64,000 nucleotides of DNA from an uncultured Desulfarculales bacterium. Lineage in GTDB: Bacteria; Desulfobacterota; Desulfarculia; Desulfarculales; JAHJDS01. The stretch is taken from assembly GCA_964569795.1 (NCBI GenBank), contig CAZMVB010000005.1, forward strand, positions 107,092-171,091. The letters are read 5' to 3'. Positions 3 to 39,131 of the stretch are shown here, in pieces (the first letter of the stretch is position 1; each line of letters opens with the position of its first letter). The position numbers and the translations under genes were made by a program. A model generated the notes under the pieces. It was not told where the DNA came from. It was given only the letters and a program-made list of their open reading frames with translations, and ran no database searches.

Positions 3-296
3 CTGGCCGGGCCGATGGCGACCGGTCCGGCCGTTGTCAAGGCGGCGGCCGCGACGGACAATGGCGTCCGGGTTTGCCGGCTTGTCTGCCGGCCCATATG
101 TCACTGGGTCGTAATGCAGCGGCGCTGCCGACCGGGGATGCTCTGCCGCTTCAAGAGCCACGTCTTTTGCCGTTGTTATGTTCGGCCCAGGGGTTGCGCC
201 AAGCGATGCCGGTCAAGGCCCGTTGTCGCGCGCTGTTCCCGGGTGGGCTGGTGCCGGGTCAGGGTCAGGTTCTGCCGGTGCGGGTATCCCCGGTGA
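3..296 (+). CDS. Cys/Arg-rich small protein, 5' end cut by window edge (possible family member CARP-F)
   Basis: The ORF is open to the window start. About 75 aa contain 13 Cys and many Arg. Motifs RVCR.VCR and ICHWV resemble the paralogs at 9995-16779. Third codon positions are GC-rich and a hairpin terminator lies 50 nt downstream. It could still be a spurious high-GC ORF. Confidence 0.4.
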   Translation: MAGPMATGPAVVKAAAATDNGVRVCRLVCRPICHWVVMQRRCRPGMLCRFKSHVFCRCYVRPRGCAKRCRSRPVVARCSRVGWCRVRVRFCRCGYPR

Positions 297-3995: not shown

Positions 3996-4093
3996 GGGCG
4001 GGTCCCAATGGGCCGGATGATCGACTGATCCAGCTGATCGAGGCCGGCCAGGAGGACCTTCGAAGGTGAGTCTCACCAGAGGTCATTGAGACA

Positions 4094-5365
4094 GTGTTAC
4101 AAGAAGACCAAACTGCTGAACTTCTATTATGGTGCGAACAGGAATTGGGCGTAGAGCTACGCCAAATAAGAGGGAATTTGACAAAAGCATTAACACGGGC
4201 TTCAGCTGTCTGGGAACTATTAGTAATTGAAGAGGCTTCTAGGCTTGGAAAGGTGCAATATGAGCCGGACGCTGAAGGCAGCCCGGATCTATTTATTGAA
4301 TTCCCTAATGGGCGTCCCGTTTGGATCGAAATTAAATATCTGGCTAGGCGTTATGTCAAAGAAGAACAACAGACGCAAGAGGTTGCTAATTGGATATTTA
4401 ATGAGGCCAAGCGGCTTGGCGTACCACCTGAATCGGTCAAGCCGCGTTTCGGTCGTTTTGTTAGTGACAAAGGAAAATCAATTAGGATTTTACCGCAAAT
4501 TAATATGAGGAAGTTTTTCCTAAACGACCCAGAATTGCGCTACTTTTTCCGTAGGATAAAAATGTTTCCACATCACAATTTTTCTTGCGACCTTACTGAT
4601 TATACCATTTCGATTGATTATTGGCCTAAATTTCCATCATCAGGATATACTAGTTGGTCTGAATTACCTCTTGAACAACCAGCAATAGCCAAAGAGAATG
4701 CCATTTATAGGGCCTTGAGAGAAAAGGGTAAACAACACAAAGTCGAGGCTCCCCATGTAATATGCATTGGAAGCGATCAAAGCCCTGCATTAAATAGAAA
4801 AATTTATCAGGGTAATCTTGCTATTGAAAGAGCAATCGAATATGCTTTCAAAGATTATAGCTCCATTTCAGCCGCCATTATTGTCTTCATCGAATCAAAT
4901 ATTGATATTTTTGGCCAGGAAGAAGAGCGGAAGGCAGAGTTGAAAATATTTGAAAATCCAAGTGCAACACACCCACTTGAGGCTTCACAATTACATTTAT
5001 TAACAACAATGAACTTTAATAGACGGAAGTATACATCTACGCTGCCAAATAATGAGACTAACGACTTGGAACGTTTTCTGCGTGTATCAGGGTGCTTAAC
5101 TTGGAGGTCAACGGAAATGAGTGAATTTGTTGAAATCCCTTCTAACACACTGATGAGGATTCTATCAGGGAAAACCAATTTATATGATTCATTTCGTATT
5201 CGACCTGGTGATTTTCGAAGAATACCCTTTGAAAATGGATGGGCCATTCGGAGTGTTTCTATGAAAGAAGGAAATATTGAAAAGGGGGAAGATTCAAAGG
5301 TCGTATTGGAACTCGTTTCACCAATATTTAATCCATACAGGCCGCACAAAAAAAGTAAAGGTTAG
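4094..5365 (+). CDS. Hypothetical protein with a possible PD-(D/E)xK nuclease core, in an AT-rich islet
   Basis: 423 aa ORF that is clearly AT-richer than its flanks. The N-terminal segment SPDLFIEFPNGRPVWIEIKY fits a D...ExK motif. The rest is unrecognised. Confidence 0.65.
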   Translation: MLQEDQTAELLLWCEQELGVELRQIRGNLTKALTRASAVWELLVIEEASRLGKVQYEPDAEGSPDLFIEFPNGRPVWIEIKYLARRYVKEEQQTQEVANWIFNEAKRLGVPPESVKPRFGRFVSDKGKSIRILPQINMRKFFLNDPELRYFFRRIKMFPHHNFSCDLTDYTISIDYWPKFPSSGYTSWSELPLEQPAIAKENAIYRALREKGKQHKVEAPHVICIGSDQSPALNRKIYQGNLAIERAIEYAFKDYSSISAAIIVFIESNIDIFGQEEERKAELKIFENPSATHPLEASQLHLLTTMNFNRRKYTSTLPNNETNDLERFLRVSGCLTWRSTEMSEFVEIPSNTLMRILSGKTNLYDSFRIRPGDFRRIPFENGWAIRSVSMKEGNIEKGEDSKVVLELVSPIFNPYRPHKKSKG

Positions 5366-5462
5366 GCAGACGTTACTGCTAAAACAGGCTGGCTGTTTTC
5401 TGATAAAGGGACTTCTTTCTGCTGGCAGCGAATTTGCCGAATGTAATAGAGGCTGTCGGCCC

Positions 5463-6026
5463 TCAACCCCGGGGCGCCTTCGGCCTGAGGACCACGGCCG
5501 GCCGGGTGCGCTCGGAATACCTGAAATCCAAAGACTCATGAACGGTCCCGTACCTGCCCTCCAGATCCGCCAGGGGACCGGCATCCAGGGCCCGGGTGGG
5601 ACAGGACTCGATGCAGGCCGGGAGTTTTCCTTGGGTCCAGAGGTCCAGGCAGAAGTCGCACTTGCCCATCTTGGCCCCCGGGGTGGGTCCGAACTGCGGG
5701 GCGTCATAGGGGCAGGCCTTGCGGCACTTCTCGTCGCAGGCCTCATTGCCCAGGCAGGCCTCCCGGTCCACGACCACGATCCCGTCCGCCTCGCGCTTGG
5801 AGATGGCCCCCACCGGACAGGCCTCAACGCAGATCGGCTTCAGGCACTGGAAGCAGGGCAGCACCAGGTAGCTGACAAAGACCTCTGGCACCTCTCCTTG
5901 TTCAGTGTAGGCGATCCGCATCCAGTTCTCCGGACCGGCCGGGATGTCATGACAATCCTTGCAGGCGACGCGGCAGGCGCTGCAGCCGGTGCACCGGGTC
6001 TGATCGAAATAGAAACCGACTTGCAT
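5463..6026 (-). CDS. 4x[4Fe-4S] ferredoxin subunit, DmsB/NrfC type
   Basis: Cys clusters CTGCSACRVAC, CFQCLKPICVEACP, CLGNEACDEKCRKACP and CDFC..CIESCP. The ATG at 6026 follows a G-rich SD, 14 nt after the catalytic subunit stop. Confidence 0.85.
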   Translation of the reverse strand: MQVGFYFDQTRCTGCSACRVACKDCHDIPAGPENWMRIAYTEQGEVPEVFVSYLVLPCFQCLKPICVEACPVGAISKREADGIVVVDREACLGNEACDEKCRKACPYDAPQFGPTPGAKMGKCDFCLDLWTQGKLPACIESCPTRALDAGPLADLEGRYGTVHESLDFRYSERTRPAVVLRPKAPRG

Positions 6027-9994: not shown

Positions 9995-10366
9995 TCAGCC
10001 CCGGATGACGCAGACCACGACAGTGCAGCGCAAATGGTACCGGCAAGCCCGCCTCGTTACCCATTGGCAAATTTTGTGCGTCACCCACTGGCAGATGGAC
10101 TGACATCTTCTGCGGATCATGTTGCCCACCCGGCTGTGCCAGCATTTTTGCAGCGGGTGGCAAATTCGCTGCACCTTGCAGACTTGCCTCGAGACCGGGC
10201 CGCAGGTCTTTACGTAGTTGCATTTCCGGCACGGAACCGTCTTGGCGATTTGGAACGTGACCCGGGACCGGACGGCAACCGCCGGGGTCGCCTTGTTACC
10301 GGCCGCCGCCGGGCCAACCAAAGCGACCAGCAGAACCAGGACTGCCATTGACCAGAGAACCTTCAT
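9995..10366 (-). CDS. Secreted Cys/Arg-rich mini-protein CARP-A (long type, 12 Cys)
   Basis: SD GAGGAGG and signal peptide MKVLWSMAVLVLLVALVGPAAA. The Cys spacing is shared with CARP-B and CARP-E. Internal ICQWVT(H/R)(K/R).C duplication. C-terminal VIRG. Confidence 0.8.
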   Translation of the reverse strand: MKVLWSMAVLVLLVALVGPAAAGNKATPAVAVRSRVTFQIAKTVPCRKCNYVKTCGPVSRQVCKVQRICHPLQKCWHSRVGNMIRRRCQSICQWVTHKICQWVTRRACRYHLRCTVVVCVIRG

Positions 10367-10423
10367 GCTGTTTCCTCCTCGTGACCTTTTCGCCGGACCG
10401 GCCCCCGATCCAACGAGAGTTTT

Positions 10424-10535
10424 TAGGCGTCACCGGGGACACGGTCCCGCGGTGACGACGAAGTTGATTTTCCTGACCGGTCGCCGGGGGGAGTAGAAGC
10501 CGCGTCCTCTTCCCGGGGACCGGTCTGACCGCCTG
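10424..10535 (-). pseudogene. Duplicated 3' end fragment of the 11976-12440 gene
   Basis: About 100 nt are nearly identical to 11968-12075. It encodes GFYSPRRPVRKINFVVTAGPCPR versus GFYSPWQPVRKINFVVTAGPCSR. There is no signal peptide or homologous upstream part. Confidence 0.6.
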
Positions 10536-10645
10536 GTGCGGGCGTTGTCTGTTCGGGCCCATTGGCTGGCCGTATGAGGTTCCACGGTCAGTCGTTTTTC
10601 ACGGCCATCACACTGGGCGATCATTCGAACCTTCGGCGCCCCCGT

Positions 10646-11914
10646 TCACCGGGGCGGGGGAAAGATGATCGGTCCGGACGGGAAGAAGACGTGCTGCAGG
10701 CGTCCCCCGCGGAAAAAGGCGATGATATGTTTCTTCAGATAAAAAAGAGAGTGCACCGTCCCTCTCCGGAACTTTTGGGTAATGACCTTGTCCGGCGAAC
10801 CGAAGATGCGTTCGAACTCGGCCCTGGTCAGGGACCCCGGTCGCTCGAAGTCGATCACCACCCCCGTAACCATGGCCGGTGGCCTGAAGTCGGCCGAACA
10901 AAACCTTATCTTGAATTTTTGGGGGTCGATCTTCAGGCCGGGGAACAGGTAGGGCAGCAGGGGGTCCAGGCCACGATGGCAAGGCTCATTGAAGAGCAGG
11001 CCGATCTCGCCGGGAAAGGTCTTCTTCAAATCCCAGGCGTGACCGTCCGCGATGGAATACGTCATTTGCCGGCGGATGGCCTCGATCAGGAAGTCGTTCT
11101 CCGGCCGCCAGGCCACGCCCTGGGCCTCGGCCGCCCGGCGCAGCTTGGCATAGAGATCCGGCCGCTTGGCCAGACGCCGGACCAGGGACCAGGGCACGAT
11201 CCAGCCGCAGGAGAAACTTTTTTCATCCCGAGGCCGGGGGCCGACCCGACCATGGCTGGGGCCGGAGTGGATGATCACCCGGACGACTTGTCCCTGATTG
11301 ACCCAGCAAATCATGTTGCGCCAGACGTACCACTTGACCTCGGACGGCAGTTTGAGGGCGTTCCCCGGGGGCAGCTTGACGTTCAGGACCAGGTCCGGTT
11401 TGCCCAGGGCGGCGGTGAATTTTTGAAGGCTCGCGTCCGCGGCCAGCGGGGCCGACGGGGTCCCACCCTGGATCATGACCTTGATCACCGTGCCGCCTCT
11501 GACGAATAAATCGGCCTTCAACCGCTTGTAGTCCACGTTTTTGATCTTCAAGAAGTTGAAGAACTGCCCCAGATATTGCCGGGCCCTGGCCGGCCCCATC
11601 TTCCTGGTGTTCAGATGCTTGAATATCGGTCCAAAATAGTGGGCGTAAATGACCAGATCGGCCTCGGTCAGGTTATGCTTTTTCAGGAAGGCCTCGATCT
11701 TGGCCCTGATTTCGACCGGATCGCCGAAGCCCAGGGCCGCGATCTGGTCCAACCTGTCGAAGGGCCGGCCCACGGTCAGGCCGTGGAAGGTGAAGGGCCA
11801 GACCACGTAGCGGAAGCCGCGCGGGTCGGTCACGATCCGACCGGGCTTTGCGTCCGCACGGCCGTACCCGGCCAGAAACACCAGGGCCAGCACGACAACG
11901 ATTGTCCTTTTCAT
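10646..11914 (-). CDS. Secreted hypothetical protein (422 aa)
   Basis: Start set at ATG 11914 with signal peptide MKRTIVVVLALVFLAGYGRADA. No family recognised. The long N-terminal extension in the track was rejected. Confidence 0.75.
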   Translation of the reverse strand: MKRTIVVVLALVFLAGYGRADAKPGRIVTDPRGFRYVVWPFTFHGLTVGRPFDRLDQIAALGFGDPVEIRAKIEAFLKKHNLTEADLVIYAHYFGPIFKHLNTRKMGPARARQYLGQFFNFLKIKNVDYKRLKADLFVRGGTVIKVMIQGGTPSAPLAADASLQKFTAALGKPDLVLNVKLPPGNALKLPSEVKWYVWRNMICWVNQGQVVRVIIHSGPSHGRVGPRPRDEKSFSCGWIVPWSLVRRLAKRPDLYAKLRRAAEAQGVAWRPENDFLIEAIRRQMTYSIADGHAWDLKKTFPGEIGLLFNEPCHRGLDPLLPYLFPGLKIDPQKFKIRFCSADFRPPAMVTGVVIDFERPGSLTRAEFERIFGSPDKVITQKFRRGTVHSLFYLKKHIIAFFRGGRLQHVFFPSGPIIFPPPR

Positions 11915-11975
11915 GAAACTCTCCCCCAGCTGACCATTCAAGGCCGGGCCTTGAACCGGCGAGCCTCTTTCGGCA

Positions 11976-12440
11976 TCACCGGGAACACGGTCCGGCGGTG
12001 ACGACGAAGTTGATTTTCCTGACCGGTTGCCAGGGGGAGTAGAAGCCGCGTCCACTCCCCGGGACCGGCTGACCATTGGCGTCGAACCTGATACCGCCGG
12101 TGAAATAGCGCCGCTGGATCTCCACCACTGCCATACCGGGCCGCAGGGCCTTGATCTCGGCGACATAGGCCATGGAGTGGATGAAGTTTCTCCCTACGGT
12201 TAAACTGTTTCCCCTGGTGACCACGGCCCGGTAAAACGGACCGTTCTGGCTGCCCACGGCACCCAGGCGCAGGTTGAATTTTTGGCCGACCCGCAGGCAC
12301 CGGGACGAGGTCGTCACCTTGACCGCTGGGGGCCTGACCGTTGCGGCCCGGGAGACGCCGCCGGCCGGAAACACACCGCCCAGGCTTCCGGCCAGGCAGA
12401 CCACCATCAAGGCCTTGAAACCACTTTTCCTCAGACACAT
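11976..12440 (-). CDS. Secreted hypothetical protein (154 aa)
   Basis: Start set at ATG 12440 (MCLRKSGFKALMVVCLAGSLG) with an AAGGA SD. Its C-terminal tail is duplicated at 10424-10535. Confidence 0.7.
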   Translation of the reverse strand: MCLRKSGFKALMVVCLAGSLGGVFPAGGVSRAATVRPPAVKVTTSSRCLRVGQKFNLRLGAVGSQNGPFYRAVVTRGNSLTVGRNFIHSMAYVAEIKALRPGMAVVEIQRRYFTGGIRFDANGQPVPGSGRGFYSPWQPVRKINFVVTAGPCSR

Positions 12441-12513
12441 GGGTAGATTCCTTTTATCACGGGCCCGGCCATGGCCCCCCAGCCAGGCCGCTTCTTCTCT
12501 TCTCCGGGGGACC

Positions 12514-12831
12514 TCACCGCTCGACTCGACCGCACCTGTAACACGAACCTTGATCGGTGCTGTAACAGCGACCATTGCAATACCACGCCTTGTCGCTCGG
12601 ACAGCAAGCCCTGTATTTCCAGCAGCAGTCATCGCCTGACGGGCAGCAGAAGCTCCCGCAATTGACCGGATAGTTGGCCGGACACCTCCGTCTGGCCAAT
12701 TGAACGGTTGTTCTCGTTTCCCGTTTGCAGCGCTGAACCGCTGTATGCCCTGCGCCCAGGGCCATGGTCGGCGCCAGGCAAATCGCCAGCAAGAACACCA
12801 CGATCAAGACGCTGATTCCTCCCCTTCTCAT
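12514..12831 (-). CDS. Secreted Cys-rich mini-protein with CC doublets (distinct from the CARP family)
   Basis: SD AAGGAGG 7 nt before ATG 12831 and signal peptide MRRGGISVLIVVFLLAICLAPTMALG. The mature part contains C-x7-C-x3-CC-x5-CC-x5-CC-x7-C-x3-C-x7-C-x2-C. Confidence 0.75.
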   Translation of the reverse strand: MRRGGISVLIVVFLLAICLAPTMALGAGHTAVQRCKRETRTTVQLARRRCPANYPVNCGSFCCPSGDDCCWKYRACCPSDKAWYCNGRCYSTDQGSCYRCGRVER

Positions 12832-13078
12832 GACGTGTCCTCCTTGACCCCCTGTTACTTCCATGGATGTTTCCCGCTCACGCTTCCGCCGGATTGGCTG
12901 GCCGGATTCGCCCTGGTCCGGCCTCTTCAGTTCGATTGGGTTCTCCTGGGTCCATGGCGTATCCTCCGTTTCCTTGGGGAAGCTGGATAAGTTGTCTCCC
13001 CAGTCGTTTTAGTGTTCCCCCGGCCGCGGCCGCGCCCTTGCGGCGGACATCATCGGGCCAGGGTGATCACCCCCGGCC

Positions 13079-13438
13079 TCAGTCTCGCACCGCACATATC
13101 GCCGCGACATGGACCTGCCGGCACCGAATCCGGTTGACCAGGCGGCAGTACTGGCGGGTCAGCCACCGGCAGATCCGGCGGCACTGCTCGACGATGCGGT
13201 TGCCGATCCGCGACCGGGTGCAGACGTGGGTCGGCTGGCAATAGCGCTGGGCTTGGCAGACCCGCATGGGCGCTTTTCGGCAGACCCGCACGGTCTTGTA
13301 ACACGTCTTGGCCAGCCTTTGCGCCGGCCGGGGCGGCGCGGCCGAGGCCGTCAGGGGCACGATCGTCAACCCCATGGCGACCAGGGCGATCAACATCCAG
13401 CCGAAGCAGATACCCAACTTGACACGACTTGAATACAT
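13079..13438 (-). CDS. Secreted Cys/Arg-rich mini-protein CARP-B (long type, 10 Cys)
   Basis: SD AAGGAGGAGG. Leader MYSSRVKLGICFGWMLIALVAMGLTIVPLTASA. By manual count the mature 86 aa hold 18 Arg, 3 Lys and 10 Cys with only 2 acidic residues. Core motifs are shared with A and E. Confidence 0.85.
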   Translation of the reverse strand: MYSSRVKLGICFGWMLIALVAMGLTIVPLTASAAPPRPAQRLAKTCYKTVRVCRKAPMRVCQAQRYCQPTHVCTRSRIGNRIVEQCRRICRWLTRQYCRLVNRIRCRQVHVAAICAVRD

Positions 13439-13509
13439 TTGATCCTCCTCCTTCTTGGGTCACGGACGGTCGATAACCGCGGCCGCCTCGGTGACCCCGA
13501 TCGGATGCC

Positions 13510-13959
13510 CTAGCGCACGAAGGTGTTGGCCACCCGTTTTGATTTCTTGAAGTACAAGATCCACAGCACCGACGCCACCATCCCGATGAAGTATAAGGGC
13601 AGGCCCCCCCGCGGCCCGACCCAAATAAGCAGGACCACCAAAGTAAGCCCGTACAAGATCAAATTCAGTCCCAGGCAGACGACAATGGTCCGAGGTCCCT
13701 TCACCCGGCGTCGATAGAGCGCCCACAAGACAACCAGGCTCAAGGCCAGATCCCAAATATAGCTCGCGAATATGATTACAATCAGGGTCTGGAGGACCCC
13801 ACTAGCCACCGCGACCATGTACGGGACGGCCTCGACGATATCCACCAAGGCAAACAGCACTGTTATGATCGTGTAAAATAATAGCCAACCGCCGAACCCG
13901 GACAACTCGTTTTCCCTGCCACGGCTGCTGGTTTGGGACATGACGATCTGATTATCCAT
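13510..13959 (-). CDS. Small 4-helix membrane protein, DUF2569/YdgK-like (paralog of 456-869)
   Basis: Start set at ATG 13959 (MDNQIVMSQ). The FGGWLLFY motif and the C-terminal YFKKSKRVANTFVR match the 456-869 protein. Confidence 0.8.
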   Translation of the reverse strand: MDNQIVMSQTSSRGRENELSGFGGWLLFYTIITVLFALVDIVEAVPYMVAVASGVLQTLIVIIFASYIWDLALSLVVLWALYRRRVKGPRTIVVCLGLNLILYGLTLVVLLIWVGPRGGLPLYFIGMVASVLWILYFKKSKRVANTFVR

Positions 13960-14077
13960 GGTTGCTCCCTTTGACAGGTTCACCGGACCGCCTGGGTAAA
14001 AACGGGAATACGTTTGTGGCGCCCTCTCGAGAGGCCGTCCGGGCCGCCCCGGCCACCTCTCTGGGCGGGATCGAGCC

Positions 14078-14371
14078 TCAACCTCGGATGGCGTTGCAGG
14101 AGGTCTCGCAACGCGTCTCCCTACGGTAAAAACGCCGCCGAACCCACCGGCAGACATGAGTTCCATTCAACCACTGGCACACCTTTTGAAGCACGGTGTG
14201 GGGCACCCGAACCGTTCTGCACACTCGATGGCACACCCTCTTGGCCAGCATCGTCCCCCCGTTGTTCCTCGCCGCCGAGGCCACCAGGGGCACGAACATC
14301 AGCCCCAGGGCGATCAGGGCGATCAAGACCCAGCCCATGCCGGCTCCCCACTTGACAGACTTGCCAGACAT
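14078..14371 (-). CDS. Secreted Cys/Arg-rich mini-protein CARP-C (short type, 6 Cys)
   Basis: Start at the second ATG (MSGKSVKWG), preceded by GGGAGGGG. The leader is nearly identical to B and D. Cys pattern C-x3-C-x13-C-x8-C-x13-C-x3-C. C-terminal AIRG. Confidence 0.8.
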   Translation of the reverse strand: MSGKSVKWGAGMGWVLIALIALGLMFVPLVASAARNNGGTMLAKRVCHRVCRTVRVPHTVLQKVCQWLNGTHVCRWVRRRFYRRETRCETSCNAIRG

Positions 14372-14489
14372 TTTCCCCTCCCACATCTTCGGTCATCGAA
14401 CTCGGTCATGACGGGCGCGGCCGGGCCGCCCCGGCCGCATCGCGTTGTCCACCCAGGCATCCGCCGCCTTTCAGAGGCGAGGTACGGCC

Positions 14490-14831
14490 TCAACCTCGGA
14501 CGGCAAGGGCGCAGGTTACATGGCACCTTCTCTCAATCCGGTACTCAACTATGGCCCTCAAGTGGCATAGTTGGCGTTTATACCAATCGCACACCCTTTG
14601 GAAAACGGTATGGGGCACCCGAACCCTCCGGCACACTGTATGGCACACTCGTTCGTAATGCCGTTTGGCCAGCATCGTCACACCGGTGTTCGCCGCCACC
14701 GCGTGGATCCCGGGATGATCGGGGACACCTTTCGCCGAGGCTGCCAAGGGCACGAACATCAGCCCCATGGCCACCAGGGCGATCAAGATCCAGCCGAAGC
14801 CGTTTCCCCACTTGACACGCTTGTCAGACAT
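14490..14831 (-). CDS. Secreted Cys/Arg-rich mini-protein CARP-D (short type, 6 Cys)
   Basis: Leader MSDKRVKWGNGFGWILIALVAMGLMFVPLAASA. Cys pattern C-x3-C-x13-C-x7-C-x13-C-x3-C. C-terminal AVRG. Tandem paralog of CARP-C. Confidence 0.8.
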   Translation of the reverse strand: MSDKRVKWGNGFGWILIALVAMGLMFVPLAASAKGVPDHPGIHAVAANTGVTMLAKRHYERVCHTVCRRVRVPHTVFQRVCDWYKRQLCHLRAIVEYRIERRCHVTCALAVRG

Positions 14832-14925
14832 TTTCTACTCCCATGTCTTCAATTAAAGAGCTTGGTTAAATAAGACCTCCCTCAGGGGCGGGTTGGCCGA
14901 TGTTAATGATCCGGACCTGAACCTC

Positions 14926-16170
14926 TCACCCCGCCGGGTTGACCACCCGTCCCATGAACAGGATCGTTCCGGTCCGGGTGTCCATCACCACGAACAGGAA
15001 GGGATGATCGGCCCGGAACACCGGCGGGCCGGACGGCGATCTCGTGGCGATGACCACGGCCGTGGCCGCGGCGGCCACGGTCCCGGCCTCGTTGACCTCG
15101 ATGAAGGCCTTGTGAAACACGCCGCTGATGTGCAAGTTCTTCTTTCTCCCGTCCATGCGAGAGAAATCGGCCTTGTCACCCTTGAAGGCGTCCTTGATCC
15201 CCAGGGCCTTGAGCGATTTTTTGAGGCTGATGGTCGGCGTGGTGACCTTGAACCGGGGCAGTGAGACCTGGACCACCCTCCCGGGGCGCACTGACGACAG
15301 CCACTTTTTCAGGTTGGCCGGGGTGAGGGCCCGTTCCAGGCCGGCCAGGCCGCCGGCCCGCTTGGGCAGCAGCACGAACATGGACAGGGACCGGTCGGCG
15401 TAAGGCATCTCCAGGACCTTGAGGGAGCCCAGATCGGCGTAACCGAACGGCTTGATGCCCCGACCGTTGGTCTGGGACATCATCTTGACCCGGACCTTTT
15501 TGTGGGGAGCGATGAAAAAGTCGGCCTCATGGGTCTTGGCCTTGTCGAACTTGAGCCGCCAGGTGCCCTTGAAGTACACGGCGTTGGTCAGCACCAGCGT
15601 GGTCAGGTTGGTGATCGACCCCGGTGGCAACAGGTCCTTGACCCTGTCCCGGGTCTTCTTGGCCGCCCAGGCGTTTATATTGCGACGCGAGGCCTCGGGC
15701 TGTGCTGCATAGTTCTGGGGAAACAGGGCGTTGCCATAGTTAACCTTGATCCTCTGCAAAAAGGATTTGAGAAAGGGATAGCCCTTCTGGGGAAACAGGG
15801 CGTTGGCGGTCAGCAGCACGGCGCCATTCCGGCCGGAGCGTTCCAGGCGCCGGATCAACCGGCCCAGGCGGAGGTGCCACGCGGCCTCGGGGCCCCTCAG
15901 GCCCAGGGCCGCGGCCATTTGACGCTGCGTCTCGTGGGCCGCCCCGGCCAGGGTCATGGACAGGGCCACGGTGATGCTGTAGGGCGAAAACACGATGTTG
16001 GCCGGGCCTTTGCGGAAGTCCTTGAGCCTGGTCAACTGGCCGTAGAGTTTGAGGGCAAAGGCGGTGTCCTTGCCGACCATGCGGCGCGGGATCGGGGCCA
16101 CGGCCGCGGCCGTGGACAGACCCAGGGTCAGGCTCACCAGGACAACGATCAGCAGTCGAACCGGTCTCAT
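14926..16170 (-). CDS. Secreted serpin (serine protease inhibitor), inhibitory-type hinge, predicted P1 Arg
   Basis: Signal peptide MRPVRLLIVVLVSLTLGLSTAAA. Serpin body and C-terminus FRADHPFLFVVMDTRTGTILFMGRVVNP. Reactive-centre loop EAGTVAAAATAVVIATR-S. Confidence 0.9.
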   Translation of the reverse strand: MRPVRLLIVVLVSLTLGLSTAAAVAPIPRRMVGKDTAFALKLYGQLTRLKDFRKGPANIVFSPYSITVALSMTLAGAAHETQRQMAAALGLRGPEAAWHLRLGRLIRRLERSGRNGAVLLTANALFPQKGYPFLKSFLQRIKVNYGNALFPQNYAAQPEASRRNINAWAAKKTRDRVKDLLPPGSITNLTTLVLTNAVYFKGTWRLKFDKAKTHEADFFIAPHKKVRVKMMSQTNGRGIKPFGYADLGSLKVLEMPYADRSLSMFVLLPKRAGGLAGLERALTPANLKKWLSSVRPGRVVQVSLPRFKVTTPTISLKKSLKALGIKDAFKGDKADFSRMDGRKKNLHISGVFHKAFIEVNEAGTVAAAATAVVIATRSPSGPPVFRADHPFLFVVMDTRTGTILFMGRVVNPAG

Positions 16171-16329
16171 GATTTCCCCCTGAAAAGAAGTTCCGGCCAT
16201 CGGCCCCAATGCCCTTTTGGCATCAGGATGAAATGGTTAGACCGAATCCGTGCCGTTCCGGTTCCCCTTTTTTTCCACCGGGCCGGATGAATGCGCTCGA
16301 TAATGAATGCCCCCCTGCCCCTGATGGCC

Positions 16330-16359
16330 AATAAAAAAGGCCGGGGGATTCCCCCGGCC
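16330..16359 (-). terminator. Rho-independent terminator after CARP-E
   Basis: Minus strand reads GGCCGGGGG-AAT-CCCCCGGCC followed by TTTTTTATT, about 30 nt after the stop at 16390. Confidence 0.8.
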
Positions 16360-16389
16360 CTGATCGGCGCTGCTCCAGTCGGTCGATAA

Positions 16390-16779
16390 TCAGCCCCGCA
16401 CGGCGACGCAGACCGTCTGGCACCTGGGCTGCAGTCGGCACTGCAGGCGGTAGATGAACCGGCAGATTCGCCGGGTGAGCCACTGGCAAACAGACTGGCA
16501 GCGTTGGACGATCTGATTGCCCACCCGGGACCTGGTGCACAGGCGCCGGGGCTGGCAGTAGCGCTGAAGCTGGCAGACCCGACTGGGGACCCGGCGGCAG
16601 ACCCTGACGTTGGTGCACCGCCGGAAGCATTTCCTCTTCTGCTGGGCCAGCCGCGCCGGCTCCACCCTGGCCCGGACTGAACCAGTCTCGGCCGGGTCCA
16701 TTCGCCCCTGGGCCATTGCCCCGGGACTGACCACCATGGCAGCCAGCATCAGGACCATCACCATGTAACTGACCTTCAT
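16390..16779 (-). CDS. Secreted Cys/Arg-rich mini-protein CARP-E (long type, 12 Cys)
   Basis: Signal peptide MKVSYMVMVLMLAAMVVSPGAMA. Same Cys spacing and QRYCQP / TRSRVGN / CQWLTR motifs as CARP-B. C-terminal AVRG. It has its own terminator. Confidence 0.85.
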   Translation of the reverse strand: MKVSYMVMVLMLAAMVVSPGAMAQGRMDPAETGSVRARVEPARLAQQKRKCFRRCTNVRVCRRVPSRVCQLQRYCQPRRLCTRSRVGNQIVQRCQSVCQWLTRRICRFIYRLQCRLQPRCQTVCVAVRG

Positions 16780-22726: not shown

Positions 22727-24835
22727 TTAATCATCCTGCCTGACTCCGGCCTGAAGCTCGACCAGGCGGCGGTACAGGCCTTCCCTGGCCATCAACTCGG
22801 CGTGGGTCCCCTCCTCGACCACCCTGCCCCGGGAAATTACGAAGATCTTGGACGCCCGCCGGATGGTCGAGAGCAGATGGGCGATGACGATCGTGGTCCG
22901 GCCGGCCATGAGCCGCGGCAGGGCCTCCTGGATCTTCCCTTCCGTGTCCGGGTCCACGCTCGAGGTCGCCTCGTCCAGGATCAGGACCTCGGGCCGCCGC
23001 ACCAGGGCCCGGGCAAAGGCCAGGAGTTGTCTCTGGCCGGCCGACAGTTCGGCCCCGCCGCCGGTCAGGACCTGATCATACCCGTCAGGCAGGGCGGAAA
23101 TGAACTCGTCGGCCTTGACCGTCTTGGCCGCGGCCACGATCTCGTCGCGGCTCACCGGCCGGGGCGACCCCAGGGCGATGTTGTCCGCCACCGAGGACTC
23201 GAACAGATACACGTCCTGCATCACCAGGCCTGTCCGAGCCAGGATCTCATCCTGGCTCATGTCTGCCACATCCCGGCCGTTCCACAGGATGTGGCCTGAC
23301 TCGGGCAGGTAGAACCGGAGCAGGAGGTGGATCAGGCTGGTCTTGCCCTCGCCCGTGGCCCCCACCAGGGCCACGGTCTGCCCCGGCTCGACCGTGAACG
23401 ACACCTGGTCCAGGACCGGCTGGTCGGCCCGGTATCTGAATCCCACCCGGCGCAGTTCGATCCGGACCCCCGGGCCGTTCTCGGGCAGCCGGGCCGCTCC
23501 CTGGGGCAGTCCGGTCCGGGTGTCCATCAGCTCGAAGATGCGCTCGGCCGAGGCGTTGGCCGACTGGAGCAGGTTGTATTTCTCGGCCAGGTCCCGGATC
23601 GGCCTGAAAAAGAGCTGGATGTAGGCGATGAAGGCCACCAGGACGCCCAGGGACAGCCGATCCTGGATCACCTGGCCGCCGCCGTACCAGATGATCAGTC
23701 CCAGCCCGATCGCCCCCAGCAGCTCGACCACCGGACCGAACAGGGCAAAGACCATCACCTGTCTCATCCCGGCCTTGAACAGTGAAAAGTTCAGCCCCCC
23801 AAACCGATCCTTGAGCCGGGACACCTGGTTGAACAGGGTCGATTCCTTGACGCCCCCCAAGAACTCCTGGACAAAGGCGTTCAGCCGGGCCAGCCGGTCC
23901 CGCACCTGGCGAAAGGCCTGCCGCGACAGCCGGGAAAACACCCAGCTGGCGGCCGCGATCAGCGGGACCAGGACCAGACACCACAGGGTCAGCCTCGCGT
24001 CCAGGTGAAGCATGACCACCACGATCCCGATCAAAAGCAGCAGGTCCTGGAACAGGGTGTTGACCACTGACTTGAACATCTCGGCGATGTTCTGGACGTC
24101 ATTGGTCGTCCGGGTGACCAGGCGGCCGATGGGTTTGGCCCGGTAAAAGGCCAGGGACTGGCCGATGAGATGGGAGAACAGGTCCATCCGGAGCCGGTGC
24201 ATCATCCGCTGGCCCGCGATCTCCAGGATGACCAGTTGCCCCACCCAGGCCGCCAGATGGATCAACGCGATCAGCAGAAAGGCCGCGCCCAGCGCCCACA
24301 GCACGGACAGGTCCTTTCCCCGGATCGCCCGTCTGACGGACGCTGGCAGACGAGACAGATCATCAAAGGTGATGAACAACCGGCCGCCGGCGATGATTAT
24401 TTTACTTTTATATTTAATTAAAGAGCTTGTCAGGTGGGGCTCGGCCCGCGTGTAATAATAGCGCTGGGGCGAAATGAAGCGCTTCAAATGAGCCACCAGC
24501 CTCGGGTCCAGCCGCTTGAGGTCCGGCCCGGTCATGAAGCCCTGTCGCGGTCCGACCCGGATGTACCCCGGGGAGGCCGTGATCCGGGCCTGATCGCGAT
24601 GATGGTCGGTCCCCCAGTTGAATAAATGGGCCGTGGGGACAATGGCGTCATCCAGGGCCATCCGGGTGAGGTAAGGCAGGGCCAGGTCCCCGGCCGAGAC
24701 CAGGCCCACCAGGACGATGGCCGCCACGAAATGCCGCCAAAAGGTCCGGCCGTAGCCCAGCAACCGCCACAACAGGCGGAGGTTATAGCCCCGGCCCAGC
24801 CGGCCTTCCTCCATGTAGCCGTAATTACCGTTCAT
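22727..24835 (-). CDS. ABC exporter, fused permease/ATPase, with a large TM1-TM2 loop insertion
   Basis: 702 aa with Walker A GATGEGKTS, signature LSAGQRQ and Walker B ILDEATS. It overlaps the upstream partner gene by 11 nt. Confidence 0.9.
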   Translation of the reverse strand: MNGNYGYMEEGRLGRGYNLRLLWRLLGYGRTFWRHFVAAIVLVGLVSAGDLALPYLTRMALDDAIVPTAHLFNWGTDHHRDQARITASPGYIRVGPRQGFMTGPDLKRLDPRLVAHLKRFISPQRYYYTRAEPHLTSSLIKYKSKIIIAGGRLFITFDDLSRLPASVRRAIRGKDLSVLWALGAAFLLIALIHLAAWVGQLVILEIAGQRMMHRLRMDLFSHLIGQSLAFYRAKPIGRLVTRTTNDVQNIAEMFKSVVNTLFQDLLLLIGIVVVMLHLDARLTLWCLVLVPLIAAASWVFSRLSRQAFRQVRDRLARLNAFVQEFLGGVKESTLFNQVSRLKDRFGGLNFSLFKAGMRQVMVFALFGPVVELLGAIGLGLIIWYGGGQVIQDRLSLGVLVAFIAYIQLFFRPIRDLAEKYNLLQSANASAERIFELMDTRTGLPQGAARLPENGPGVRIELRRVGFRYRADQPVLDQVSFTVEPGQTVALVGATGEGKTSLIHLLLRFYLPESGHILWNGRDVADMSQDEILARTGLVMQDVYLFESSVADNIALGSPRPVSRDEIVAAAKTVKADEFISALPDGYDQVLTGGGAELSAGQRQLLAFARALVRRPEVLILDEATSSVDPDTEGKIQEALPRLMAGRTTIVIAHLLSTIRRASKIFVISRGRVVEEGTHAELMAREGLYRRLVELQAGVRQDD

Positions 24836-26579
24836 GGTCGTCCAGGCCGCCCATTTCCTCGAGGAGCTTCAGTCGATTTATCAGGTCGGCATAGGCCCCG
24901 CCCGCGGCCATCAACTCGGCCGGCGGCCCCTGGTCCGTGATCCGTCCCCCGTCCAGTACGGCCACGTGATCGCATTGGGCCAGGACCGTGGGCCGGTGGG
25001 TGACCAGGACCACGGTGCGGTGTTTCCCCAGCAGCCCCTCGAGGATGAGCCGCTCGGTGGCCGCGTCCACGTGGGACAGGGCGTCGTCGGCCACCAGGAT
25101 CGGGGCCCTGGTCAGCCAGGCCCGGGCCAGGGCCACCCGCTGGCGCTGGCCCCCGGACAGGGTCAGGCCCTTTTCCCCGACCAGGGTGTCCAGGCCGGCC
25201 GGAAAGGAGGCCAAATCATGGGCCAGGCCCGAGGCCGCAGCCGCGGCCTCGATCTCCTCGGCCGAGGCCTCGGGGCGCCCGAAGGCGATGTTCTGACGGA
25301 TGGTGTCCGAAAACAGGAAGCTCTCCTGGGGGACAAAGGCCAGCCGGGACCGCAGCGAGGCCAATTGGATGTCCCGGACGTCCATCCCGTCCAGGAATAC
25401 GGTCCCGGGCGGGGTCTCGTACAGCCGGCCGAGCAGGGCCAGCAGGGTCGATTTGCCCGATCCGGTCGGCCCGGTCAGGCCGGTGATGCCGCCCGCCGGA
25501 ATGTTCAGGGTCACCCCGGACAGCACCGGCCGTTTTTCCTCCGGATAGGCAAACGTCAGGTCCCTGATCTGGATCCCGCCCGGCCCCTGGGGGGCTGGCC
25601 GGGCGTCCGCGGCGTCCGTGACCTCGGGCCGGGTCGCCAGGATCTGGCCCAGGCGGGCCAGGGAGGCCGATCCCCGCTGCACCAGGCTGATGACCCACCC
25701 CAGGGCCATCATCGGCCAGCTCAACAGGGCCAGGTAGGCCCCGAAGGCCACGAAGTCGCCCGTGGTTATGGACTGATTGATGGTCAGCCGGCCGCCGAAC
25801 AGGAGCACCGCCGCGGCGCTGAGGTTGGTGAAGAAGAGCATGATCGGGAAAAACAGGCCCGAGGCCCAGATCAACTTGATGTTCTTGGTAATGAAATCGC
25901 GGCTGGCCACGTCCAGGCGCCGGGTCAGCACCCCCTGGGCCTGATAGGCCTGGATCAGATGGACCCCGGAATAATCCTGCCGGACCATCTCGGTCAGACC
26001 GGAAAAGGCGGCCTGAACGTCGGTGAAACGCCGGTGAGTCAGCCGGGACAGCCGCCGGGTGACGATCACCAGCAGGGGCATGGGCAGGATGGCGATCAGG
26101 GTCAGTCCGGGGTGGATCCAGAGCATGAATCCGATGGCCGCCAGCCCCAGGAAAATGCCGTCCACAAAGGCGACCATCCCGATCCCGACCGACATCCGGA
26201 CCGCGTCCATGTCATTGGTCAGCCGGGCCATCAGGTCGCCGTGGGGTGTTTTCTTGAAAAACCCGATGGACAGGCGGCTCAGATGATCGAAGACCTGGCC
26301 CCTCAGGTCCCGCTCCACCTGCCGGGCCTGGCCCAGGACCATCCGCCGCCAGACCACCCGCAACAGGGCCATGAACCCGCCCAGCAAGACGATCAGTCCG
26401 GCCTGCCCCAGCAGGCTCATCAGGGTCGCCTGATCCAGGGTCAACTGGTCAACCGCCCTCTTGATCAGGCGCGGGATGAAGAGCTGGGCCAGATCGACCA
26501 GCATCAGGGCCGACAGACCCAGGGAGATCATCCACCAGTGCCGCTTGAGAAAGGGCGTGACCAGTCGAAAGTTCTTCAT
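24825..26579 (-). CDS. ABC exporter, fused permease/ATPase (heterodimer partner)
   Basis: 584 aa with Walker A GPTGSGKST, signature LSGGQRQ and Walker B VADDALS. Confidence 0.9.
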   Translation of the reverse strand: MKNFRLVTPFLKRHWWMISLGLSALMLVDLAQLFIPRLIKRAVDQLTLDQATLMSLLGQAGLIVLLGGFMALLRVVWRRMVLGQARQVERDLRGQVFDHLSRLSIGFFKKTPHGDLMARLTNDMDAVRMSVGIGMVAFVDGIFLGLAAIGFMLWIHPGLTLIAILPMPLLVIVTRRLSRLTHRRFTDVQAAFSGLTEMVRQDYSGVHLIQAYQAQGVLTRRLDVASRDFITKNIKLIWASGLFFPIMLFFTNLSAAAVLLFGGRLTINQSITTGDFVAFGAYLALLSWPMMALGWVISLVQRGSASLARLGQILATRPEVTDAADARPAPQGPGGIQIRDLTFAYPEEKRPVLSGVTLNIPAGGITGLTGPTGSGKSTLLALLGRLYETPPGTVFLDGMDVRDIQLASLRSRLAFVPQESFLFSDTIRQNIAFGRPEASAEEIEAAAAASGLAHDLASFPAGLDTLVGEKGLTLSGGQRQRVALARAWLTRAPILVADDALSHVDAATERLILEGLLGKHRTVVLVTHRPTVLAQCDHVAVLDGGRITDQGPPAELMAAGGAYADLINRLKLLEEMGGLDDHER

Positions 26580-30461: not shown

Positions 30462-30584
30462 ATGAAATCCTATCGCAAAGAGCGATGGTTCGAGGTGCCG
30501 AGCCGGCGGGCCTTCATCCACATCACCCCGCAGGTCGAGGAGTGCCTCCGGGAGAGCGGGATCAAGGAGGGCCTGTGCCTGGTC
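30462..30584 (+). pseudogene. yjbQ: yjbQ (UPF0047) 5' part, 41 codons, cut by element insertion
   Basis: [41 protein letters not shown], then 7 element-derived codons and a stop. The continuation [10 protein letters not shown]... lies at 37774. Confidence 0.8.
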
Positions 30585-32244
30585 AAGACGAAGCATATGG
30601 AGTTTTGACCTCCACTCCGACTCCCTTTCCAACAATCTTACCGGCCTTCGCCGCCGCCTTGGTATCCCCGTCAAGAGGACGTTCCGCCGCAGCATAGACG
30701 TCCCCCGACCGAGCCTGTAAATGGCCCCATATGGTCCCCAGGCGGCCGTAGGCCTCGAACTCGTATCGGTGTGGGTTCCCTCCCAGGAACTTGATGTAAA
30801 CGCCGAACCGGCGGCCACCCGGGCCTGTCCCACCAAACACCAGGTTGACCAGGTCCTGTAGTTCGTCGTCGGGCATGTCATTGAAGGCGACCCCCGAGGA
30901 AATGTAACTCTCGACTATCCGCCGTACCAGTTGGGCGTCTTGGCTGTTCCGTTTGGCTTCGATTTCGGACTCCCGAGGCAGTGCCAATAACTGCTCGTCG
31001 ATGGCAGTCAACTCCTTCTTGTGGTTGGCCAACCGAGATTCAAGCTTCTTGAGGTTTCGCTGGGCCTGATCGTCGGTGACAATTCCCTTCCCGATGGCAG
31101 CCACGATTCGGTCCATTTCTGTTTGGACCTGTCGGACCTCTTTGAAGTGGAACGCCCTCTTGTCCAGGAGTTCCTTGACCACCTTTTCACTCGACTCGTG
31201 GCCCTCGAACACCGCGGCACGGAAGTCACCCTGGTTCGACAACATCACGGCCAGTTCATCCAAGACGGCCCGCTCCAAAACCTCGGCGTTGATACTGTAC
31301 TTGTAGCCGTCGCCGGAGTGTGGCCGGTAATACCTAAGGCCCCCTCGGTTTGCCGTCCCGGTCAAGGCCTTGCCCGTGTCGGTGTCGAAAATCTTGCGGC
31401 CCAATAAGTACCGGTGCTTGATATGCCCCCTGGCGTAGGTCTTCCGGGCCTTGGCCCTATCCTTGATGGCCTGGATTGTCTCCTCAGGCAGGAGTGGAGG
31501 CACAGGAGTCGGGACGGTCTCGTCGATCCTCGCCCACTCCAACCTGAACCTCTGATCCCAAGTGGCCCCGGCGGTCTTGGTTAACACCCGCCAAAGGTAC
31601 TGCCCGTTCATGCCGAACTTTCGTCCGAGTTCGTTGAATCCGGCGTTGGTCTCCAGGTACTCCCTGGCTATGGCCTCTATCTTGGCCTTGGCCTCGGGGT
31701 CAACCTGCCAGCCGTCCTCCTGGGACCAGGTCCGGCCATAGGGCCTCTTGCCACAACTGGGCCTCCCCTGCCTGGCACTTTCGATTTTGCCCAAAACCGA
31801 TTTGTAGGCCTGCTGGCCGGCAAAGAGCTCCCCGGCCTCGACACTCATCCCCAACACGAAAAAGGGCTCGGGATTGGTCAGCTCGTACTCCATCGGTCCG
31901 ACAAAAAACCTGACCCCCTTCATCCGAAGTGCCTTCAGGTTACCCTTGTTCTTCTCGTTGTCCCGGCTCCACCGACTAATGTCCGCCACGATCACGGCGT
32001 CAACCCGGCCATCCAGAGCATCGGTCATCAGTCGGTCAAGCTCGGCCCTTTCCCAGTTGGCGGTGGCGTGTTCCTGCCCGCCGTACCAGTCGACCACCTG
32101 CCCCCCGAGCCGGTCTATTGTCTGCTTGAGGTACCTCCGTTGGGTCTCCAGGCTTGTCCCCCGGTCAGCCTGTGCCTCGGTGCTGACCCGGATCAGGGGG
32201 GCGAACTTGATCGGCTGTTCTACCACGGCCTCGCCCTTTTTCAT
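30583..32244 (-). CDS. Large serine recombinase
   Basis: 553 aa. N-terminal resolvase domain with the catalytic Ser context LIRVSTEAQ, then a recombinase domain and a coiled-coil C-terminal part. Its stop codon sits at the attL core. Confidence 0.9.
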
Positions 32245-37773: not shown

Positions 37774-38070
37774 AACGCCATGCACATTACGGCATCGGTA
37801 TTCATCAACGACGACGAGTCGGGCCTGCATCACGACTACGAGAAGTGGCTCGAAGGCCTGGCCCCTCACGCCCCGGTGAGCCAGTACCAGCACAACCGGA
37901 CCGGCGAGGACAACGCCGACGCCCATCTCAAGCGGCAAGTGATGGGCCGGGAGGTGGTGGTGGCCGTGACCGACGGCCGCCTGGACTTCGGCACCTGGGA
38001 GCAAATCTTCTACGGCGAGTTCGACGGCCGCCGCCGCAAGCGGGTCCTGGTCAAGATCATCGGGGAGTAA
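37774..38070 (+). pseudogene. yjbQ: yjbQ (UPF0047) 3' part, 98 codons
   Basis: [17 protein letters not shown]...[53 protein letters not shown] aligns with the C-terminal two thirds of E. coli YjbQ (from memory). It is preceded by 8 element-derived codons starting at ATG 37750. Confidence 0.8.
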
Positions 38071-38091
38071 CGATCCTTTGGGGGGGACGCA

Positions 38092-38949
38092 ATGGAGTTA
38101 GTTAAGCCCGAACGCATTTGGGTAAAAGACCACCCTTCCCTTAACGAAAAGTGGGTCCAGTCTATAATCGAGGACGACCCTTCAATCCTTGGCTTGGGTG
38201 AGCTTGATTTCAGGGACAAAGAACGCCGTCATCCTCGGGCTGGCCGGCTGGACTTGTTATTGGAAGACTCTGAGGCCAATCGCCGATATGAAGTTGAAAT
38301 TCAACTTGGGGCAACGAATGAAAGTCACATAATTCGAACTATAGAGTATTGGGACATCGAACGTAAAAGGTATCCACAATATGACCACTGCGCAGTCATT
38401 GTAGCCGAAGACATTACTAGCCGGTTCTTGAACGTAATTGGTCTGTTTAACGGATTCATTCCAATCGTTGCCATTCAATTTCAAGCTATGATGTTCAATG
38501 ACAAAATTGCCCTGATTTTTACAACAGTCTTAGACGAAATGACTTTGGGTGAAGATGAAGGAAACGGACCTCTGCCGAGAGTCGACAGGGGTTATTGGGA
38601 AACAAAACGGGGCACCAAAGAAACCGTTGCGCTAGCTGACGGAATTCTTGATTTAATCCATTCATTTTCTCCCGAATACGAACTAAATTATAACAAATAC
38701 TACATAGGACTTGTAAAGCAGGGGCAACCAAACAACTTTGTAATTGTCAAGCCAAAGAAAAAATATGCAGTAGTCGAAATTAAACTGGCCAAGACAGATG
38801 AAGTTAATGGCCAGTTGGAAGACAGTGATCTGGACGTGATCGATCATCATAAAAGTGGGAGATGGAGAATCAGGCTGAAAAAGAAAGATATTCTCGCAAA
38901 CAAGGAGTTGTTAACTGAATTGTTAAAAAAAGCCTCCAATGAATTTTGA
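38092..38949 (+). CDS. NucS/DUF91-like PD-(D/E)xK fold protein (hypothetical), AT-rich
   Basis: 285 aa. GRLDLLLEDSEANRRYEVEIQLG resembles a D...E.(K/Q) nuclease core. The IIRTIEYWDIERKRYPQYDH block is known to me from widespread uncharacterised homologs. Confidence 0.65.
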   Translation: MELVKPERIWVKDHPSLNEKWVQSIIEDDPSILGLGELDFRDKERRHPRAGRLDLLLEDSEANRRYEVEIQLGATNESHIIRTIEYWDIERKRYPQYDHCAVIVAEDITSRFLNVIGLFNGFIPIVAIQFQAMMFNDKIALIFTTVLDEMTLGEDEGNGPLPRVDRGYWETKRGTKETVALADGILDLIHSFSPEYELNYNKYYIGLVKQGQPNNFVIVKPKKKYAVVEIKLAKTDEVNGQLEDSDLDVIDHHKSGRWRIRLKKKDILANKELLTELLKKASNEF

Positions 38950-39131
38950 TAATAGAAACTGGACCGGGGCTAATGGGCGTTGTATTGTCGAGAGCGTAAA
39001 ATCAAGTTATATCGTCATAAGGCCAGACATTAACTTTCCATAAAAAGTTATGATTCCACAAAAGCCCCACCATCATCCATCACGGAAGGCGAAAAGTCAA
39101 TAGGGGGTATCGAGGCGGTTGGGATTTCTCC

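Follow-up and report, generated by a model that had tools for sequence, protein, structure and literature searches.

In Helicobacter pylori, the paralogous pairs babA/babB, sabA/sabB and homA/homB undergo a concerted evolution that is restricted to one segment of the gene, and chimeric paralogs arise by gene conversion (PMC3960876). A conserved signal joined to a hypervariable mature part is known from anuran antimicrobial peptide precursors and from conotoxin superfamilies (PMC6245896, PMC4494067). The present work concerns five paralogous bacterial genes, A to E, for small Cys/Arg-rich predicted secreted proteins (hereafter CARPs), which lie in a 64,000-nucleotide (nt) stretch from an uncultured Desulfarculales bacterium; the whole stretch is called the window, and all positions are given in its numbering. 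Conserved leaders followed by diverse cores are also found in the precursors of bacteriocins and of ribosomally synthesised and post-translationally modified peptides (RiPPs), such as prochlorosins and double-glycine leader peptides. At this locus, CARP-B, CARP-C and CARP-D share one type of leader, although B carries a long core and C and D a short one. A first-pass annotation of the sequence had attributed this either to recombination between paralogs or to a leader with a specific role beyond Sec targeting. Here, we report that B is a mosaic with one breakpoint, located where the predicted signal peptide ends, and that silent divergence is lower in the B, C and D leaders than in their cores.

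Results

Leader and core identity

The B, C and D genes are all found within 1.8 kb. The longest open reading frame (ORF) of C spans 14078-14386, and its real start was moved to the ATG at 14371 because of a GGGAGG Shine-Dalgarno sequence upstream and of the database gene call P0004. With this start, the N-termini of B, C and D can be aligned without gaps over 33 codons. Over these leader codons, amino acid (aa) identity was 58% for B-C, 70% for B-D and 76% for C-D, the corresponding nucleotide identities being 75, 81 and 86%, and third codon positions were identical at 79-91%. The 33-aa N-terminus, first described as almost identical in the three proteins, is therefore common to them and gap-free, but only 19 of its 33 positions are invariant. 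Besides, B does not fit the proposed motif G.G(F/M)GW exactly, since it has a Cys instead of a Gly at motif position 11 (GICFGW).

Beyond the leader, aa identity of the mature parts was 38-41% for B-C, 39-44% for B-D, 55-57% for C-D and 55-56% for B-E (ranges give the spread over two alignments). At the nucleotide level, the mature parts of B-C and B-D were 50-53% identical, clearly below the 75-86% of the leaders. In sliding windows, identity was 0.8-0.93 within the leader vs 0.2-0.5 beyond it. The resemblance of B to C and D begins near the start codon and holds up to about +95 nt, and that to E sets in at about +130 nt and continues through the rest of the gene. The similarity also reaches the untranslated region of the ribosome site, where it is clear for C-D from about -30. 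The view of the leader as the best-conserved segment across core types is thus borne out, its identity being far above that of the flanks. The leader of A and E is indeed of another type (type 1) than that of B, C and D (type 2). As for the Cys residues, the counts of 10 for mature B and 6 for C and D held, whereas mature A and E contain 12 and not 10 as first stated.

Breakpoint after the predicted signal peptide

The change of affinity along B was located with the maximum chi-square test, with permutation p values, on codon-threaded alignments. A single breakpoint was detected in the B/D/E triplet (chi-square 43.0, permutation p <= 0.0002) and in the B/C/E triplet (chi-square 30.0, permutation p <= 0.0002). 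For B/D/E, B codons 34 and 35 flank the break, which lies straight after ASA-A and just past the predicted signal-peptidase site; B/C/E and B/D/P0006 (P0006 being an ortholog of E) gave the identical position. On its 5' side, B matches D at 31 sites but E at only 2; on its 3' side, the match is with D at 17 sites and with E at 52. Just ahead of the first core Cys, the codons of a LAK motif (CTGGCCAAG in B and C, CTGGCCAAA in D) are again similar, over a short stretch that borders the breakpoint zone on its downstream side.

An assembly artefact or collapse was considered as the source of the mosaic and was ruled out: the independent Logan assembly of SRR14802574 contains an exact copy of window positions 12883-15117, and the longest exact runs shared among the leaders are 12-14 nt (14 nt between B and D).

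Silent-site divergence

The proportion of synonymous differences (pS) was computed from Nei-Gojobori counts and compared between leader and core by a permutation test. Leader pS was 0.18 for B-C, 0.28 for B-D and 0.10 for C-D, against 0.63, 0.66 and 0.44 in the respective cores (permutation p of 0.0003, 0.0035 and 0.0033). Because codon bias is strong in this genome, a second null was drawn from the codon usage of the window. Under this null, the same codon was used at identical leader residues more often than expected, namely at 14 of 17 residues for B-C (9.0 expected, p = 0.011), at 15 of 20 for B-D (10.5 expected, p = 0.031) and at 20 of 21 for C-D (10.9 expected, p = 1e-5). Between the B core and the cores of C, D and E, codon matching was at chance level.

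The ratio of nonsynonymous to synonymous divergence (dN/dS) in the leaders was about 0.5-1.8. Replacements are as common as silent changes, most of them being single-step swaps between hydrophobic residues, and the silent sites are conserved together with the amino acids. Such ratios indicate that the leader similarity reflects recency and not amino-acid constraint. Taken together with the low leader pS, the leaders are therefore younger than the cores rather than more constrained as peptides, the alternative being a constraint on the nucleotide sequence itself.

History of the cores

In the identity matrix, E and its ortholog P0006 are the nearest to every other member, which indicates a star-like radiation of the cores with a slowly evolving E. 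The B core shares an identity of 0.32-0.34 with C and D, and a star tree passing through E predicts about 0.30-0.33; since both values agree, the cores give no indication of a close sisterhood of B with C/D. In a quartet analysis of the cores, informative sites were too scarce for the tree to be resolved.

Relative to the long core, the short C/D core lacks 29 residues (P65-R93 in E numbering), and two further Cys are substituted. The missing piece sits between two VCQ repeats (14078-14831 vs 16390-16779), and its loss suggests a deletion between short direct repeats. When the short core was aligned to the long one with this single 29-residue deletion, the contrast between leader and core was unchanged. 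The Cys framework is largely retained across the family. For the mature parts, dN/dS reached about 0.65 for C-D and about 0.9 for A and its metagenomic relative P0005, against 0.28-0.32 for E-P0006 and B-E, with few sequences available for these estimates.

The leader pS of C-D (0.10) and those of B-C and B-D (0.18-0.28) are all below the core pS of C-D (0.44), and one shuffling event is therefore insufficient to account for them. The leader module would thus have been homogenised more than once, in a concerted evolution limited to the 5' module.

Features of the type-2 leader

The three n-regions (MSDKRVK, MSGKSVK and MYSSRVK) have a net charge of +2 and are followed by the h-region GW(I/V/M)LIAL(V/I)A(M/L)GL..V, with a hydrophobic stretch of 15-18 residues. 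In the cleavage motif VPL.ASA, the Pro is found at position -6, with Ala-Ser-Ala occupying -3 to -1. The type-2 leader is thus predicted to be an ordinary cleavable Sec signal with a canonical signal-peptidase I site, and we infer its export and cleavage from these features. Two traits are less usual. The n-region is longer than is common (12-13 residues), with V6, K7, G9, G13 and W14 invariant, and ASA is followed by Lys at +1 in D and by Arg at +2 in C, which is atypical and casts some doubt on the predicted cleavage. Basic residues just after the cleavage site are unfavourable for the export and processing of Sec substrates in Escherichia coli.

Other export routes were searched for. None of the five n-regions contains the RR of a twin-arginine translocation (Tat) motif, and a TIGR01409-type match was absent. 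The leaders do not conform to a lipobox, the residues after ASA being A, A and K, and position 11 of B, where the leaders have their sole Cys, belongs to the n-region. A double-glycine site is absent from the hydrophobic leader, which ends in ASA. Curated signal-motif families (YSIRK, KxYKxGKxW, ESPR and others) gave no match at E <= 1 in Pfam or at E <= 10 in NCBIfam. The nearest ATP-binding cassette (ABC) exporters (22727-26579) consist of ABC_membrane and ABC_tran domains only, and neither an ABC exporter with a C39 peptidase nor a modifying enzyme was found beside the CARP genes.

Within the window, the type-2 leader was detected at both DNA and protein level in B, C and D alone, and the signals of the serpin, of the 414-aa protein and of the Cys-rich ORF product encoded nearby (Table 1) are unrelated to it. 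Scans of 185,579 species genomes and of JGI metagenome contigs for the leader motif returned no confirmed carrier. A leader profile searched against 5.8 billion clusters, with imperfect recall, retrieved just four proteins sharing 5-residue words with it. The survey proposed in the first-pass annotation thus brought no confirmed further carrier to light.

Gene context

Coordinates of the CARP genes, of their neighbours and of their relatives outside the genome are collected in Table 1.

Table 1. Features of the CARP locus in window numbering, with the two relatives from metagenomes (numbered on their own contigs).
Feature	Position	Strand	Description	Source
CARP-A	9995-10366	minus	123 aa; type-1 leader MKVLWS...; long 12-Cys core	ORF
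CARP-B	13079-13438	minus	119 aa; mosaic of type-2 leader (as C, D) and long 10-Cys core nearest E	ORF
B leader, codons 1-33	13340-13438	minus	MYSSRVKLGICFGWMLIALVAMGLTIVPLTASA; predicted Sec signal peptide with ASA end
Breakpoint zone in B	13307-13339	minus	codon 34 to LAK motif; affinity turns from C/D-like to E-like
CARP-C	14078-14371	minus	97 aa from ATG 14371; type-2 leader 14273-14371; short 6-Cys core	ORF
CARP-D	14490-14831	minus	113 aa; type-2 leader 14733-14831; 12-residue linker insertion; short 6-Cys core	ORF = P0007
CARP-E	16390-16779	minus	129 aa; type-1 leader; long 12-Cys core
414-aa protein	10646-11890		predicted secreted
ORF	11976-12632		roughly 170-218 aa
Cys-rich ORF	12514-12864	minus	116 aa, predicted secreted; directly downstream of B; paired cysteines (CGSFCCPSGDDCCWKYRACC)
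DUF2569 membrane protein	13510-13959	minus	149 aa; between B and C	Pfam PF10754, E = 1e-9
Serpin	14926-16209	minus	N-terminal signal-like segment; between D and E	Pfam PF00079, E = 1.6e-110
P0005	L002 647-1024		A-type leader on very divergent core	JGI 3300057049
P0006	L024 866-1264		E ortholog, diverged signal	JGI 3300010413

In the CARP genes, the GC content at third codon positions (GC3) is 0.70-0.86, against about 0.5 at second positions (GC2). The start of B (GC3 0.86) is preceded by an AGGAGG Shine-Dalgarno sequence 7 nt upstream. Intrinsic terminators with T-tracts follow A (9971-9945) and E (16361-16337). Judged by GC3, the Shine-Dalgarno sites, the A and E terminators and the purifying selection on the E ortholog, the CARP genes look real. 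Downstream of B, C and D there are just GC-rich hairpins in which T-runs are absent. The start of C lies about 100 nt past the stop of D, and both genes may be co-transcribed.

The predicted mature CARPs contain 6-12 Cys and 12-24 Arg, with a net charge of +10 to +23 and an isoelectric point of 10.1-11.5. As a speculation, such features would suit secreted effectors of an antimicrobial-like or inhibitor-like kind. The block 9995-16779 encodes mostly predicted exported products, namely the five CARPs, the 414-aa protein, the 11976-12632 ORF, the Cys-rich ORF, the DUF2569 protein and the serpin. The product of 12514-12864 is of a different Cys-rich type from the CARPs, and searches of Pfam and NCBIfam with it gave no match. 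Another ORF (3-296, plus strand), truncated at the window start, contains 11 Cys and many Arg (…VRVCRLVCRPICHWVVMQRRCRPG…). It displays a weak similarity to the E core in a search within the window (40% over 40 aa, E = 0.001) and was not matched by the hidden Markov model of the family; this ORF is perhaps a sixth Cys/Arg-rich gene, distantly related to the others.

Elsewhere in the window, the GC content falls to 0.48 at 4001-6000 and to 0.42 at 38001-40000, against a background of about 0.62, and a serine-recombinase gene (Resolvase domain) is located at 30583-32244. The GC dips and the recombinase may belong to a mobile-element region.

The flanking genes for an enoyl-CoA hydratase (ECH) and an ADP-forming acyl-CoA synthetase (ACD) encode products with 66-80% identity to those of Desulfobacterales-type metagenome-assembled genomes. 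No CARP or serpin genes were found beside the conserved ECH/ACD pair in these genomes; the block, missing at the related loci, is therefore lineage-specific.

Relatives outside the genome

Seven members of the family were found among about 15 billion proteins. Searched against 1.84 billion cluster representatives, the family profile returned the window's own genes and P0005, nothing else; against 5.8 billion clusters it added P0006, with an imperfect recall illustrated by B and D being unlisted in some runs. A single-sequence search with B returned B itself only, and no orthologs of B, C or D were found in the homolog and leader-motif searches. P0005 and P0006 were the sole relatives found beyond the source genome. 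A scan of metagenome contigs for the core motif gave no hit, which is a weak negative: the JGI contigs on which P0005 and P0006 are encoded were themselves missed, the collection evidently being without those short contigs. Sequence searches of Pfam, NCBIfam and the PDB with the cores gave no significant match. An AlphaFold2 model of E, built on a 6-sequence alignment, was of low confidence (predicted local distance difference test score of 60, predicted template modelling score of 0.29) and too poor to be used.

Between E and P0006, 66 of 82 core residues are identical (80%; dN 0.12, dS 0.42, dN/dS 0.28) against 7 of 22 signal residues. The leaders are therefore not intrinsically conserved in the CARP family. 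E appears as its slowest-evolving member, with clear purifying selection. The first-pass premise of a faster divergence in signal peptides than in mature domains is true of this pair, but it is not universal (PMC6245896), and A and P0005 display the opposite.

Discussion

Probable gene conversion among tandem paralogs

The most plausible origin of the mosaic, to which we give a probability of roughly 60%, is segmental gene conversion or recombination, by which the tandem paralogs B, C and D would have exchanged their Sec signal module. A 5' module of about 120 nt, from the ribosome-binding site to ASA, would owe its similarity in the three genes to non-allelic homologous recombination (gene conversion) that took place after the mature domains had reached synonymous saturation. 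B would then be an effective chimera, in which a C/D-type signal peptide stands on an old long core most like that of E. As the leader would be cut off the product, it could be exchanged without effect on core function, and conversion would end where the paralogs are no longer similar or where an exchange would be eliminated by selection acting on the diversified cores. The extension of the similarity into the untranslated ribosome site is as expected of a DNA tract rather than of peptide-level selection. Of the two explanations put forward initially, recombination between paralogs is thus the one favoured by the data, through the single breakpoint at the signal-peptide end and the lower synonymous divergence of the leaders. 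From these patterns, we infer both the mechanism and the direction of exchange.

Several points weigh against gene conversion. There are only three copies, with about 25 synonymous sites per leader, and the codon-usage-corrected p values of the B pairs are modest (0.01-0.03) and mutually non-independent. A constraint at the nucleotide level would yield the same silent-site pattern. Moreover, exact runs as short as those shared by the leaders are too short for efficient present-day RecA-dependent conversion, and the events are therefore not very recent. Finally, the leaders of A and P0005 share about 68% aa identity against 37% in the mature part. Because these two sequences come from different samples, conversion within one genome cannot explain that pair, a hint that rapid change of the cores has added to the leader-core contrast in some members of the family.

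Alternative explanations

Fast core evolution is also at the heart of an explanation by vertical descent, in which the type-2 leader is ancestral to B, C and D, the cores have diverged very fast, possibly under diversifying selection, and C and D have undergone the 29-residue deletion. This agrees with the high mature dN/dS of C-D and A-P0005 and with a short core that plainly derives from the long one by one internal deletion. The star-like core phylogeny is compatible with a B+(C,D) grouping, and conserved signals on hypervariable mature parts are common among secreted peptide families (PMC6245896). However, fast protein evolution does not account for silent sites that have reached saturation in the cores yet remain unsaturated in the leaders, and one tree cannot fit the leader pS values of 0.10 and 0.18-0.28 together with the C-D core value of 0.44. 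Vertical descent is hence unlikely.

A leader function beyond Sec, maintained by selection, appears less probable again. It could involve a dedicated partner such as the DUF2569 protein, an accessory export route or a signal anchor. The membrane protein gene within the B-C-D cluster, the unusually long n-region with its five invariant residues and the basic residues of C and D after ASA are in favour of such a role, and the very cationic C-terminal domain (net charge +10 to +19) could favour a membrane-retained topology. Nevertheless, the leader dN/dS lacks the mark of purifying selection on the peptide, silent sites being conserved at least as well as amino acids, and VPL.ASA is a canonical signal-peptidase I site. 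The homologous cores of A, E, P0005 and P0006 are preceded by plain short Sec signals. The searches of signal-motif families, of the 185,579 genomes and JGI metagenomes, and of the 5.8 billion clusters (four proteins with common 5-residue words) argue in the same direction. The special role first proposed for the leader is therefore disfavoured, this judgement being based on three copies. A more specific version, in which the leader (VK.G..GW and VPL.ASA) would be a dedicated targeting or retention cassette with a lineage-specific partner, possibly the DUF2569 protein, and would have spread adaptively onto Cys/Arg-rich cores, seems quite improbable.

Very improbable, lastly, is a nucleic-acid element over the ribosome site and the first 100 coding nt (an mRNA structure, or a regulator or small-RNA site) co-regulating B, C and D: third-position identity does exceed aa identity (79-91% vs 58-76%) and conservation does start in the untranslated ribosome site, but the RNAalifold covariation term is unfavourable (+1.23) with compensatory change in 2 of 39 pairs, Rfam gave nothing even at E <= 1, and the substitutions are scattered and mostly single-step hydrophobic swaps.

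Comparison with known systems

With gene conversion as the preferred reading, the locus would provide a small and clean bacterial case of modular evolution, in which tandem paralogs keep a signal module in concerted evolution while their mature domains are free to diverge. It also illustrates that silent-site analysis can tell recency from constraint. For annotation, the lesson is that similarity concentrated in the leader is no basis for core orthology or shared function.

The closest parallel is found in the bab and hom genes of H. pylori. In both cases a terminal segment is homogenised among the paralogs of one genome while the rest diverges, chimeras being formed by intragenomic recombination, and this segment can be separated, as a module, from the variable part that carries the function. 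The CARP tract differs in being about 100-120 nt long and in coinciding with the signal peptide, whereas the bab/hom tracts extend over hundreds of bp and mostly lie at the 3' end. Unlike bab/hom, the B, C and D genes are tiny (97-119 codons), exchange between them is proposed from sequence comparison, and their leader nucleotide identity of 75-86% points to old events rather than ongoing ones.

The anuran and conotoxin families resemble the CARPs in that the signal is better kept than a cationic mature region with a Cys framework, in multigene, tandem families. The high mature dN/dS of some CARP pairs (about 0.65-0.9) is a further likeness. However, these families are eukaryotic, their signal is encoded by an exon of its own and positive selection is documented for them, whereas the CARPs are bacterial. 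The silent-site pattern of the CARPs points to DNA exchange instead of differential selection, and E, unlike those peptides, is under purifying selection.

As in RiPP and bacteriocin precursors, one leader type is found on different core types in one genome. The CARP leader is nevertheless a hydrophobic Sec-type leader with an AXA site, in contrast to the hydrophilic recognition leader with a GG/GA site of RiPPs, and the CARP cores, with 64-106 residues, are far larger.

The phenomenon is thus of a known kind, as exemplified by the H. pylori bab/hom genes and by peptide families with conserved signals. The more unusual aspect is the orphan family itself, i.e., lineage-restricted, strongly cationic proteins with 6-12 Cys and predicted export, encoded in a Desulfobacterota-like genome and clustered with a predicted secreted serpin and Cys-rich ORFs whose products are also predicted to be secreted.

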